Of a stretch of 64,000 nucleotides of DNA, positions 55,407-60,191 are shown piece by piece. Source of the stretch: an uncultured Bacilli bacterium (GTDB lineage: Bacteria > Bacillota_I > Bacilli_A > RF39 > UBA660); assembly GCA_910586295.1 (NCBI GenBank), contig CAJUGE010000018.1:10717-74716 (forward strand). The letters run 5' to 3'. A program made the position numbers and the translations under genes. The stretch's first letter is position 1; each line of letters opens with the position of its first letter. A model generated the notes under the pieces. It was not told where the DNA came from and searched no databases. It saw nothing but the letters and a program-made list of their open reading frames with translations.

Positions 55407-56483
55407 ATGAAAATGAAAAATGATAATGCTTATGGGTTTGCATTTAATGATGTCTCTGAAGAAGATATAATTAAAGGTGCAATACAAAGTGGAGTTGCAG
55501 TATTTTTACATGGTCGCTCTAGTGAAGGTAAAAGTGCAAGAGTAAAACAAGCTGATCCTGATTGTGAGATAGTTTATCTTCGTAATGCAACACCTGAAAG
55601 TTTAAATGGTAAAAGTGTTTATAATCAAAGTACAGGTGAAATGATAGATGTTAAGCCTACTTGGTTATTAAAATTAGAAGCAAAATGTGAAAGTGAACCT
55701 GATAAAATTCATGTAGTGTTCTTTGATGAACTTACAAATGCTCTTCACGCAATTCAGGGTATGGCTTTTAATATTATTTTTGATAGAGAAGTTAATGGTA
55801 AATGGAGCTTACCAAATAATGCAAGAATTGCAGCAGCTGGTAATGATTTAAGTGATTCAGTTGTCGCTAATACATTAGCAGAGCCTTTATTCAATAGATT
55901 CGCTCATGTTTATATTGAAACGACTTTAGATTCTTGGCTAGAATGGGCAAAAACCCCCAAAAGATCATACCAAAGACTTGATTATGTAGAAGAAACTGAA
56001 CAAGAATTACCGATACATCCTGCAATATATGCTTTTATCTCGCTGAAAGCTCATTCAGGAGTTAATGTACTTAGAACTAAATATGATGGCATCAAACCTA
56101 ATGCAGATCCAAGAAAATGGGAAATGGCATCAAAAATGCTATATGCAACAAGAAATCCTGAAATGATTCGTTCTTTAGTTGGAGAAGGAATTACAAAAGA
56201 TTTTGTTAATTTCTGTAAAATTAGAATTGTAAGTATAGAAGATGTTATAAATGGTAATTATTCCTCAAGTGCTTATGAAGGAGATATTGATAAAAAGTAT
56301 GCTACTGCTTTAGCTTTATCACAAGTAGATGATGCTAATGTAACCATTGTTAGAGATTTTGTTAAAAAAATGGGATTAGAAATATTACAATTATTTGATG
56401 ACTTTTGGTCTAAAGGAAATCCAGAACGTGTAAAACAATTAGAAGATATACGTTCTATGGGATTGACATGGAGAACTAAATAA
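55407..56483 (+). CDS. P-loop AAA ATPase (MoxR/AAA_5-like)
   Basis: Walker A LHGRSSEGKS, Walker B IHVVFFDELTNA, sensor AAAGN; first gene of a tightly overlapped four-gene operon. Confidence 0.7.
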   Translation: MKMKNDNAYGFAFNDVSEEDIIKGAIQSGVAVFLHGRSSEGKSARVKQADPDCEIVYLRNATPESLNGKSVYNQSTGEMIDVKPTWLLKLEAKCESEPDKIHVVFFDELTNALHAIQGMAFNIIFDREVNGKWSLPNNARIAAAGNDLSDSVVANTLAEPLFNRFAHVYIETTLDSWLEWAKTPKRSYQRLDYVEETEQELPIHPAIYAFISLKAHSGVNVLRTKYDGIKPNADPRKWEMASKMLYATRNPEMIRSLVGEGITKDFVNFCKIRIVSIEDVINGNYSSSAYEGDIDKKYATALALSQVDDANVTIVRDFVKKMGLEILQLFDDFWSKGNPERVKQLEDIRSMGLTWRTK

Positions 56484-56884
56484 TGAAAAAAATTGATTTA
56501 GAATCTTTAAAAAATTTGCTTCTTTTAAATGAATGTCCCATTTTAATAGAAGAAGCTCCAAGTGAATTGTTTAATAATGCTGTTATTTTAAGTAATGACT
56601 GTGATATTTCTTTGTTAAATGGTCATTATGAAGAAACAAATTTTGTAGCACCAGATTGGTATAACATCTTATTAGAAAAATGCAAACATGAACATTCAAT
56701 GCTTATTATTAATGGAATAAACAATTCTTCTAAAGATGAGCAATTAAAATTTGTTGAAATTCTTAAATATAGAAAAATAAGTACATTTGAATTACCTAAA
56801 AATTGTTCTATCATTGTTACTGCTTATGATATGGAAAACAAACCTTTAGCAGAAGAAATATATAGTTTAGTGGCTTTAGTGTGA
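56483..56884 (+). CDS. Hypothetical 133-aa protein (operon member)
   Basis: ATGA start/stop overlap with the ATPase gene. Confidence 0.45.
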   Translation: MKKIDLESLKNLLLLNECPILIEEAPSELFNNAVILSNDCDISLLNGHYEETNFVAPDWYNILLEKCKHEHSMLIINGINNSSKDEQLKFVEILKYRKISTFELPKNCSIIVTAYDMENKPLAEEIYSLVALV

Positions 56885-56894
56885 GGTGTAGTCT

Positions 56895-58229: not shown

Positions 58230-58232
58230 CAA

Positions 58233-60191
58233 ATGAAAAAGACAAGTATAATTGTAAAAGAAAAAAGTATGTATGATATTGATATTTTAATAGGTAATAC
58301 TGCTTATATTAAATCAGTTACAGGAAAAACAGGATTACTTAACATTAAAACTAATGCAATAATTGGAGATATGGACTACTATCATACAATATATGATACT
58401 AATGGAAAATTTTATATTCAAACACTTGAAATAGAAAAAGGAACACGAGAGAATAATTGGCACTCTAAAAAAAATATTAGAATCTATGATGCTCTTAATG
58501 AGAAAATGATTGCAGATGGTTTTGAAATTGTTGAATCATATAGAGATTATTTTGAAGTGGCATCACTTAGATCTTCAATTGATGGAAAAATTCATTTGTT
58601 TGATAAATATGCTTGTAGAAAACCTACTAATATTTTTGATATGGCATTAGATGATGTTAAAATGCTTTATAAGGCTTATAATGATACATATTTTGTAGTG
58701 ACTATGAATGGAAAAAAAGGACTTTACCATAACAATTGTTATAATGAAATTCCAAGTTTAATAACACAAATCGAATTTGATGAAATTGAAAAATTGCCAA
58801 ATATCATTGTTTATACCAAAAATAATGAAAAATATTTTGTATGTGATGGTAAAGATGGGAAAACTAGTGCAAAATTCGAAAGTATTACTGTTGATGAGCA
58901 AAATAAAAATATAGTTTATTGTAAAAAAGAAAATAAAACACATATCTATAATACTGAATCACAGGAATTACTATTAATATCGGAAACTGATGAAGTAAAA
59001 TATTTATCAAAATATGGTGATTCTTATAATGATCATCATGGAGAATTTATTTTTCTTATAAAGCAAAACGAAAAGTTAGGATTAGTAAGTTCAAAAATAA
59101 ATAATGAAATTAAAAAGTCTAATAACGGTGAAGCTATTGTAACAGAATTATTAACTCCAGATTATGATGAAATAGAACAACACTATAATCGCTTTTATTT
59201 AAAGCAAAATGATAAAATGGGATTATTTATAGGTGATTCTAATCACAATCAATTGATTGAACCAATCTATGATAATATTGATTATTTAGGAGAAGATTAT
59301 TTTGCGTTATATATTGGTGAATATTGTGATATAGGAAGAATGACTCCATATACACCATTCACAACCTCTGTTACTAACTGTCAAATTGAAAAAAATATAA
59401 GATTTGGTTTAATATATAAAAAAGATGGAAAGTATGGATTAATATTAACCGATAGAGATAATAAGAATACTATTATTCCTAACAATTTTGAAAGTATATC
59501 ATGTGTATTAGAATATTATTTTATATTAGAGAAAGATTCAAAAAAAGGATTTATGCATCATGGAAAAATGGTAATTCCTATGGATTATGATGAAATACAA
59601 ATTGGTGGAAGTTATGGAAAATACAGTAGTATGAAAGATGCAAAGGTTTTATATTTTTCTTTGAAAAAAGGGAACAAATTTGAACTTGCCAAAATGCATA
59701 ATTATCAATATGTTACAACTAATGTTGAATTTGTGAGCAATCATACTTTTGATTCAATAGATTTCTTTAGAGATATTATGGTATTTAAAGATCAAAATTA
59801 TACATACATTTATGATTATGAAGAAAAGTTAGTAAAGACATTTCCAGCACAAACATCAGTAATCCCATTTGCAAAGCCATGTAGCAAATGGGATGAGGAA
59901 CACAACCATAGAGATTACTTCTATGCAATAGATGGTGTATACTTTTATTATAAAGATGGTAAGTTTGAAAAAGTGTTAGTTGAAGAAAATGATTGTTATG
60001 TAACAACTTATGAAATTGGTAACGAAACATTTGAATTAAGAACATTTAACAAAACTGAGCATGATGCATTTTGTCAGACAATTGAAAGTAAAGAAGATAG
60101 TGAGGCTGAAAAAACATTAATAGAAATTGCTAAAAACGGAAATAATAAATATCCTACTTTAGTATTGAAAAGAGTTAATAATAATCAGTAA
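58233..60191 (+). CDS. WG-containing-repeat protein (652 aa)
   Basis: Recurring K.GL...G..IIP..YD.I motifs (KKGLYHNNCYNEIP..., EKLGLVSSKINNEI..., KMGLFIGDSNHNQLIEPIYDNIDY, GKYGLILTDRDNKNTIIPNNFESI); 4 nt after the vWA gene. Confidence 0.6.
   Translation: MKKTSIIVKEKSMYDIDILIGNTAYIKSVTGKTGLLNIKTNAIIGDMDYYHTIYDTNGKFYIQTLEIEKGTRENNWHSKKNIRIYDALNEKMIADGFEIVESYRDYFEVASLRSSIDGKIHLFDKYACRKPTNIFDMALDDVKMLYKAYNDTYFVVTMNGKKGLYHNNCYNEIPSLITQIEFDEIEKLPNIIVYTKNNEKYFVCDGKDGKTSAKFESITVDEQNKNIVYCKKENKTHIYNTESQELLLISETDEVKYLSKYGDSYNDHHGEFIFLIKQNEKLGLVSSKINNEIKKSNNGEAIVTELLTPDYDEIEQHYNRFYLKQNDKMGLFIGDSNHNQLIEPIYDNIDYLGEDYFALYIGEYCDIGRMTPYTPFTTSVTNCQIEKNIRFGLIYKKDGKYGLILTDRDNKNTIIPNNFESISCVLEYYFILEKDSKKGFMHHGKMVIPMDYDEIQIGGSYGKYSSMKDAKVLYFSLKKGNKFELAKMHNYQYVTTNVEFVSNHTFDSIDFFRDIMVFKDQNYTYIYDYEEKLVKTFPAQTSVIPFAKPCSKWDEEHNHRDYFYAIDGVYFYYKDGKFEKVLVEENDCYVTTYEIGNETFELRTFNKTEHDAFCQTIESKEDSEAEKTLIEIAKNGNNKYPTLVLKRVNNNQ

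Follow-up and report, generated by a model that had tools for sequence, protein, structure and literature searches.

We describe here a four-gene cassette in a 64,000-nucleotide (nt) stretch of an uncultured Bacilli bacterium (RF39; UBA660), namely CAJUGE010000018.1 positions 10,717-74,716 of assembly GCA_910586295.1, which is referred to as a whole as the window. The cassette consists of four open reading frames (ORFs) on the same strand across 55407-60191, designated g1 to g4, which encode proteins of 358, 133, 444, and 652 residues. Its conserved core consists of a MoxR-type ATPase (g1), a predicted inactive paralog of that ATPase (g2), and a protein that joins a zinc metallopeptidase to a vWA domain with a metal ion-dependent adhesion site (MIDAS) (g3). 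The fourth gene looks like a recruited, clade-specific component that lies outside this core, and the cassette as a whole is cargo of an integrative mobilizable element (IME) in this gut spore-former. Our current hypothesis, which we hold tentatively and at slightly less than an even chance, is that the cassette is a recognition-and-cleavage conflict system, related as a variant to the MoxR-vWA systems that have been proposed computationally. An original prediction from the sequence had read the locus in a similar way. Its MoxR-like ATPase, zincin-vWA protein, and WG-type gene on a mobile element are all present, but g4 is not part of the core, and both the clade-specific status of g4 and the kinship of the 133-residue protein to the AAA core had been missed.

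The four genes are tightly spaced and are predicted to be co-transcribed. The junction of g1 and g2 reads TAATG, in which the TAA stop and the ATG overlap by 1 nt. A 10 nt gap separates g2 from g3, with a GAGGTG sequence lying over the g2 stop, and only 3 nt separate g3 from g4; g3 is found 412 nt downstream of g1 in the same operon. The coordinates, the two gaps, and the translational coupling of the four genes agree with the original description, whereas the overlap, previously given as ATGA, is the single nucleotide described above. Since a GGGGGA Shine-Dalgarno sequence abuts the first ATG of g1 and relatives are called at 356 residues, the true start is probably the second ATG at 55413 (356 residues). 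A TTGTAA-17-TATAAT match lies ∼50 nt upstream of the cassette; the window is AT-rich (21-32% GC), and promoter-like sites near the cassette are no more frequent than in shuffled sequence. None of g1-g4 has a hydrophobic stretch that could serve as a signal peptide or membrane helix, and a cytoplasmic location is predicted for all four.

Table 1 The cassette and the genes of its element, with positions numbered from the first nucleotide of the window
Feature	Coordinates	Strand	Evidence
g1, MoxR-like AAA+ ATPase	55407..56483	+	ORF; phrog_1297 match; AF2 model/Foldseek
g2, predicted catalytically dead paralog of the g1 AAA core	56483..56884	+	hhalign, BLAST
g3, zincin-like metallopeptidase + vWA	56895..58229	+	Pfam, phrog_1314, motif conservation
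g4, all-beta repeat protein with WG-like repeats	58233..60191	+	Family Pfam matches, visible repeats, structure model
Mob_Pre relaxase, split	54014..55299	+	Pfam Mob_Pre 1.7e-23, profile positions 52-196
HTH_3 (Xre-type) regulator, divergent	60617..61267	-	Pfam HTH_3 9.2e-11
Large serine recombinase, extends beyond the window	62355..64000	+	Resolvase 8.7e-33, Recombinase 1.9e-27, Zn_ribbon_recom 2.3e-8

The g1 protein contains the Walker A motif GRSSEGKS, the Walker B motif VVFFDE, and a sensor-1 Asn at position 146. Across 20 relatives, G36, G41, K42, D107, E108, and N146 are invariant and S43 is invariant or nearly so, which bears out the original assignment of the Walker B motif and the sensor Asn. 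The Walker A motif had been called atypical; it fits the canonical GxxxxGK[ST] pattern. The family label AAA_5, also given to g1 at first, is unsupported at the sequence level because no Pfam model (even at E ≤ 10), NCBIfam model, or PDB sequence matches g1. A profile search against the PDB returned only TRPM8 and PspF at chance level (PspF, E 0.7), and both were rejected. The protein does match phrog_1297, annotated as 'ATPase', at 3e-42. A structure model was generated with AlphaFold2 (AF2) using the 20 relatives (predicted local distance difference test (pLDDT) 83.9, predicted TM-score (pTM) 0.81) and was compared to known structures with Foldseek. The top match was 2r44, the MoxR-family protein CHU_0153 (E 4.5e-8, TMq 0.45), followed by NorQ (9qhg, 9qhd, and 9qh8, from 2026 NorQ-NorD complexes) and then MCM, all with moderate TM-scores. 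Based on this ranking, g1 is assigned by its predicted fold to the MoxR/H2-insert clade of AAA+ proteins. The g1 family comprises 1,095 matches and, among the matches listed, there is almost no Pfam annotation.

No library model matches g2. However, an hhalign comparison of the g2 and g1 families aligns g2 residues 49-133 with g1 residues 76-168 (probability 93.5%, E 2.3e-7), a stretch of g1 that spans the Walker B strand to strand 5, and the BLAST matches of g2 fall on the AAA region of long g1 homologs. Within the aligned core, g2 has NG in place of the Walker B DE, and it contains neither a P-loop nor a lid domain. Based on these features, g2 is predicted to be a paralog of the g1 AAA core that has lost catalytic activity. 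A phmmer search of 1.84 billion proteins (E ≤ 1e-3) returned 155 representatives of g2, of which nearly all are standalone proteins of 120-140 residues and a few sit within long, ATPase-sized proteins.

The domain composition of g3 is as originally proposed, a metallopeptidase fused to a vWA domain with an intact MIDAS. The protein matches DUF2201_N at 1.5e-29 (103.9 bits; gathering cut-off 23.2) and the vWA-like domain DUF2201 at 1.2e-13 (51.6 bits; gathering cut-off 26.4), and it matches phrog_1314 at 1.1e-57. The HEVCH motif occupies residues 71-75 and the MIDAS motif DTSGS residues 309-313, accompanied by GGTDF and TDGEA. These motifs are well kept in the family, with HExxH present in 181 and DxSxS in 190 of 191 relatives. 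According to Pfam, nothing follows the vWA domain at the C terminus. The two domains are joined by a linker rich in Lys, Glu, and Gln, the length of which differs by more than 200 residues across a large family (>3,272 matches). In one homolog of 761 residues (L056:11417-13702; loci from our genome scan are given by L numbers), blocks of the linker rich in Gln, Ser, and Asn are triplicated, each with a 'HDTHSMWKDAVKK' motif. The g1/g3 pair is itself a recognized association, represented in Pfam (DUF2201_N/DUF2201), in PHROGs, and in the work of Iyer et al. (2021). A functional study was not found in the literature searched for DUF2201, COG3864, and N4-like phages together with von Willebrand and ATPase terms.

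To place the cassette among its relatives, genomes were scanned using one genome per species. The scan returned 126 stretches, of which 75 loci were kept; protein clustering covered 88 loci. The 75 loci are nearly all from metagenome-assembled genomes of gut Bacilli, RF39, 'Tenericutes', or Clostridia, and in nearly all of them g1 is followed by an adjoining g3 (tblastn). The g2 gene lies between the two in 66 of the 88 clustered loci. When the flanking ORFs were clustered, no flank cluster occurred in more than 13 of the 88 loci, and the cassette is therefore non-syntenic; its distribution is patchy. Where g4 is present, independent loci keep the same gene order even when identity in g4 is as low as 35%, which indicates that the arrangement goes beyond chance and agrees with the gene-order conservation that had been put forward as a check. 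The co-occurrence that had been suggested was found in part, in that the g1-(g2)-g3 core recurs in ∼75 gut Firmicute genomes but g4 is limited to the subclade of the window. A variant is seen in L003-L005, in which g2 is absent and a gene for a microbial PARG macrodomain protein is coupled after g4. In L003 this gene (13335-14105) overlaps the end of the g4 homolog, which hints at a link to ADP-ribosylation.

The g4 protein had been described as a WG-repeat protein. The window protein itself has no Pfam match even at E ≤ 10, but WG_beta_rep (PF14903) matches 12 of 36 members of its family (best 1.1e-7), and five KxG[LF]...YD.I repeats are visible at residues 159-460. The structure model is all-beta with a C-terminal helical hairpin (pLDDT 85.8, pTM 0.64). 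The family is small, with 80 matches and none in phages. By tblastn, g4 is confined to the ten loci that are nearest to the window (L001/2, L003-5, L013, L015, L016, and L021), and every locus that bears g4 has a short form of g1. The g3-g4 gap is 0-22 nt, in the same order, in the window, L001, L003, L015, L016, and L021, even though the flanks of these loci differ. In loci with the complete set of four genes, identity to the window decreases from g1 to g3 to g4 (88/78/63% in L001, 81/60/47% in L003, 73/62/39% in L016, and 72/62/35% in L015), and g4 is the fastest-evolving of the four. An obligate partnership of g4 with g1-g3 was ruled out by homologs of ∼30% identity that occur alone. Because these distant homologs are found without g1-g3, g4 looks like a component that was recruited within the clade of the window.

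Most g1 homologs are longer than the window protein, with a median of 630 residues, and carry an N-terminal extension of ∼280 residues that is absent from the window g1 and has no Pfam match. In 13 loci, a reverse transcriptase (RT) gene is located directly upstream (RVT_1 8.1e-16), and its product contains the motif LGNQTSQ ([ILV]GxxxSQ) of the type found in diversity-generating retroelements (DGRs). The RT is preceded by an Avd-like protein, which matches bAvd only weakly (1.1e-4, below gathering). A template region (TR) and a variable region (VR) of 78-100 nt were found in 11 of the 13 RT-bearing loci (L010, L019, L020, L024, L032-L034, L063, L071, L078, and L085), with 122 of 134 mismatches located at template adenines. 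In L085, for example, the TR lies at 7721-7800 and the VR at 9325-9404. The VR encodes residues ∼71-108 of a long ATPase of 630-645 residues, within the N-terminal domain, and the reading frame is disrupted at the VR in L010, L020, and L078. Taken together, this pattern shows that the N-terminal domain of the long ATPase is hypermutated by a DGR in the sister cassettes. DGR variable regions are typically C-terminal, and so it is unusual to find one close to the N terminus of a multidomain cytoplasmic ATPase. Neither DGR components nor the target domain of g1 are present in the window operon. The long ATPases also occur as tandem paralogs. L027:1573-15865 contains five of them, with N-terminal domains that are 75-89% identical and AAA parts that are 90-96% identical. 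Four tandem copies in L063:8530-17992 are 96-100% identical with identical VRs, which may reflect a very recent duplication or an artefact of assembly.

The flanks of the cassette connect the window to these sister loci. As originally reported, a relaxase and a recombinase flank the operon; the former was identified by Pfam as Mob_Pre and the latter is a large serine recombinase (Table 1). The backbone order Mob_Pre, cargo, helix-turn-helix (HTH) regulator on the minus strand, small ORF, and serine recombinase is common to the window, L085, L071, and L073, and the HTH regulators that hold this position in the three other loci are homologous to that of the window. Identities between the window and the DGR-type loci are 68% for Mob_Pre, 45% for the small ORF, and 29% for the large serine recombinase. 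The common backbone slot is filled by Avd-RT-long g1-g2-g3 in the DGR-type loci and by short g1-g2-g3-g4 in the window. The relaxase gene of the window appears to be split. A 39-residue N-terminal fragment at 54014-54133 (MNLNYGIFRSQPIMTINDLAQIGSHNKREKKAYKSNPNI, then a stop) lies in another frame upstream of the main ORF (54199-55299), which begins at Pfam profile position 52 and encodes 366 residues compared to 431 in L085. Judging from these breaks, the window Mob_Pre is probably a pseudogene, and the window element may no longer be mobilizable.

Several known systems resemble the cassette in part. The closest are the MoxR-vWA 'ternary' conflict systems, of which VMAP, iSTAND, FtsH, and beta-propeller types have been described (Kaur, Burroughs, Iyer & Aravind 2020, PMC7159879) and in which DGR-diversified sensors have been found (Dore et al. 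2024, PMC10907252). Both these systems and the window cassette combine a MoxR ATPase and vWA core with a variable third component. Peptidase effectors and DGR-diversified members occur in the ternary systems, as a predicted peptidase and DGR-linked relatives do in the family described here, and the inactive NTPase of the iSTAND type and the beta-propeller of type 4 may be paralleled by g2 and the beta-repeat protein g4. However, the components are built differently. The peptidase of the cassette is a DUF2201_N zincin that is N-terminal to the vWA domain, where the ternary systems have a trypsin or caspase effector at the C terminus; g2, as the inactive NTPase, is a 133-residue fragment akin to the AAA core of g1, rather than a STAND protein; and the beta-repeat protein is encoded by a separate WG-type gene, rather than fused to the vWA domain. 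The third components that define the four types were not found in the operon, which encodes no FtsH and, judging from its ORFs, no candidate for VMAP. The sister loci differ from the systems of Kaur and Dore in that the domain targeted by the DGR is part of the ATPase itself and the VR lies close to its N terminus, and the hosts are gut Firmicutes carrying the cassettes on IMEs, rather than multicellular bacteria. The searched literature contained no description of a dead AAA-core fragment or a separate WG-repeat gene in such cassettes, nor of an ATPase-fused DGR target with its VR near the N terminus.

The NorQ-NorD, CbbQ-CbbO, and RavA-ViaA pairs share with the cassette a vWA partner with an intact MIDAS beside the ATPase, and the predicted fold of g1 matches NorQ and 2r44. 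In contrast to g3, the vWA partners of these pairs have no peptidase, and the pairs serve a fixed client (NO reductase, Rubisco) from conserved operons; by comparison with these ATPases, g1 is matched by no Pfam AAA model. The PrkA-YhbH-SpoVR (YeaG-YeaH-YcgB) module of stress and sporulation combines AAA+-like, vWA-like, and SpoVR domains and thus has a similar domain logic. The N-terminal domain of g3 weakly matches SpoVR (E 4.5e-4), at 19.5 bits against a Pfam gathering threshold of 27, and the cassette contains no PrkA or DUF444 match and no PrkA-type kinase domain. That module is core and syntenic, whereas the window cassette is patchy and mobile. FtsH-type zinc proteases also pair an AAA+ motor with an HExxH peptidase, but this is a functional analogy only. 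By its predicted fold, g1 belongs to the MoxR/H2-insert clade and not to the classical one. In addition, the two activities of the cassette reside on separate polypeptides that are bridged by a vWA domain and are predicted to be soluble and cytoplasmic.

The jumbo and N4-like phage pair represented by phrog_1297 and phrog_1314 belongs to the same two families, in the same order, as g1 and g3. It differs from the cassette in its low identity (∼25%), in the absence of g4 and of an N-terminal variable domain, and in its setting among replication genes. Virion assembly or processing is the role proposed for it, and the jumbo-phage version has been read as a chaperone and cochaperone with a processing peptidase (Iyer et al. 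2021, PMC7824862). Acinetobacter phage nACB1 also encodes a 137-residue ORF (L089:4911-5324) between its MoxR-like ATPase and DUF2201 genes, in the position of g2; homology to g2 or to the ATPase was undetectable, and the ORF was rejected as a relative of either.

Based on these comparisons, we propose how a recognition-and-cleavage system of this composition could work. A g1 hexamer would dock the vWA domain of g3, by analogy to NorQ-NorD and CbbQ-CbbO, and g2 may cap or bridge the resulting assembly. Specificity would be provided by a variable recognition module, which in most relatives would be the DGR-hypermutated N-terminal domain of the ATPase and in the clade of the window the separate, fast-diverging g4. 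The most economical candidate for the variable ligand of this module is a foreign protein, from a phage or a rival element, and its binding would lead to ATP-driven remodelling, which would activate the HExxH peptidase or feed it substrate, and the g3 peptidase would then cleave the protein of the invader or a host target. The proposed mechanism matches the logic of the ternary MoxR-vWA conflict systems (PMC7159879) and of their DGR-diversified sensors (PMC10907252). The conflict reading is strengthened because the DGR hypermutation affects the ATPase N-terminal domain in sister cassettes that occupy the same backbone slot as the window cargo. The neighborhood of L001 can be mentioned as an anecdotal case. 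There the operon belongs to an element that also encodes two integrases and a Mob_Pre relaxase. The gene directly upstream encodes a Fic protein that matches the PADLOC candidate PDC-S04 (1.5e-99) and SoFic, and Zeta toxin and AbiEi/AbiEii are encoded downstream. The PARG macrodomain gene behind g4 in L003 is another anecdotal case of this kind.

Several results weigh against a conflict system. A PADLOC search, which had been suggested at the outset as a check of a defence role, returned 0 families for all four proteins (PADLOC-DB v2, E ≤ 0.01). Most of the immediate neighbors of the cassette (109 from ∼50 loci) have housekeeping or miscellaneous functions; only RVT_1 is recurrent (8), with Fic and GNAT at 3 each, and no clear defence enrichment is seen in this raw tally, which has no background comparison. 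Homologs of ∼25% identity are found in phages (623 records for g1 and 432 for g3), mainly in lytic N4-like Schitoviridae and jumbo phages and beside helicase and polymerase genes, a location that fits a non-defence role there. The part assigned to g4 is also affected. Homology between g4 and the DGR-targeted domain was ruled out (hhalign probability 0.1%), and because the two are not homologous, a 'functional replacement' of the N-terminal domain by g4 is only positional; the distant homologs of g4 that stand alone count on the same side. Finally, every characterized MoxR-vWA pair known to us (NorQD, CbbQO, RavA-ViaA, and BchI/D) is a chaperone for maturation, assembly, or metal insertion.

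This last point leads to the strongest alternative, that g1 and g3 form a classical MoxR-vWA maturation chaperone that folds, metallates, or proteolytically matures a client and has no role in conflict. The client could possibly be g4 itself or another protein encoded by the element. The precedent of the characterized pairs, the presence of NorQD structures among the top fold matches of g1, the chaperone and processing role proposed for the jumbo-phage pair (PMC7824862), the lack of a PADLOC match, and the frequent housekeeping neighbors all favor such a function. However, hypermutation of the ATPase N-terminal domain in the sister cassettes is hard to square with a fixed client, and the patchy, non-syntenic distribution, the location of some cassettes on IMEs, the rapid divergence of g4, and the several paralogous ATPases in some loci also speak against it. 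On balance, we regard a pure chaperone as unlikely, although it is the alternative to be taken most seriously.

It is more improbable still that the cassette is a phage-derived module that serves the element in host takeover, anti-defence, replication, or particle assembly. The matches of g1 and g3 to phrog_1297 and phrog_1314 would be explained in this way, as would the hundreds of phage records that contain the pair, usually near replication genes, and the DGR-type cassette (Avd-RT-long g1-g2-g3) held by L093, a viral contig from IMG/VR. Yet the phage homologs are distant, and L093 is the exception; at a level of at least 60% identity, the Firmicute family occurs in 126 genome stretches versus 1 of 2.9 million viral contigs. 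Moreover, g4 has no counterpart in phages, and the window region contains no phage structural or replication genes. We consider it very improbable that g4 is a mere passenger and g1-g2-g3 the functional unit, since, despite its absence from most core-bearing loci and its solo distant homologs, g4 keeps its place directly behind g3 in six loci with 35-63% identity and different flanks, and g1 is always of the short form when g4 is present.

The remaining surroundings of the cassette provide some further observations. Upstream, 49554-50345 and 50347-51033 look like spoIIGA-sigE, based on their translations and because a similar pair at L090:11445-12945 is annotated as Peptidase_U4 and sigma-70. 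The accessory stretch of the window begins directly after this pair. A distant solo g4 homolog in L090 likewise lies no more than a few kb from a pair of this kind, and so the site may be an insertion hotspot. A short ORF at 53598-53725 encodes an Xre-type HTH protein that ends prematurely (MNQKKLGKIIAEKRKEKNMTQEELGEKIGVVGSSVSKWERGL, then a stop), which adds to the signs that genes in the accessory region are decaying. LysR-type regulators of one protein cluster are encoded near the cassette in the window (52030-52935), L032 (9374-10267), L033 (13200-14093), and L024 (17302-18165), and in L032 and L033 the gene is immediately downstream of g3. Between g4 and the HTH gene, 425 nt (60192-60616) are non-coding and contain several short inverted repeats, but yielded neither an Rfam match nor a consensus terminator call. 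Over larger ranges, an Rfam scan of 50-64 kb and a megablast search of 54-62 kb against plasmids and phages returned no match.

A more far-reaching version of the conflict hypothesis, which we consider rather unlikely but worth stating, is that the g1/g2/g3 family forms a split, retargetable AAA+ zinc protease, in which an interchangeable recognition module would aim the MoxR motor and the vWA-tethered zincin at foreign proteins in the cytoplasm. The module would be a DGR-hypermutated domain of the motor or, as in the window, the separate and fast-evolving WG-repeat protein. If it were a chaperone instead, the family would reveal which client needs a hypermutated adaptor. As a compact operon of three to four genes with clear catalytic residues, the cassette can be cloned. 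To our knowledge, MoxR-vWA conflict systems have been proposed by computation only, mostly for multicellular bacteria. Proteins with DUF2201 are common among bacteria and occur in hundreds of phages, and a recognition-coupled protease, if true, would give this domain a function. It would also extend DGR-based 'antigen sensing' to gut commensals and possibly offer a retargetable proteolysis module. If the split-protease reading is true, gut Firmicutes would possess, on mobilizable elements, an immune receptor-effector that acts at the protein level and can be diversified.

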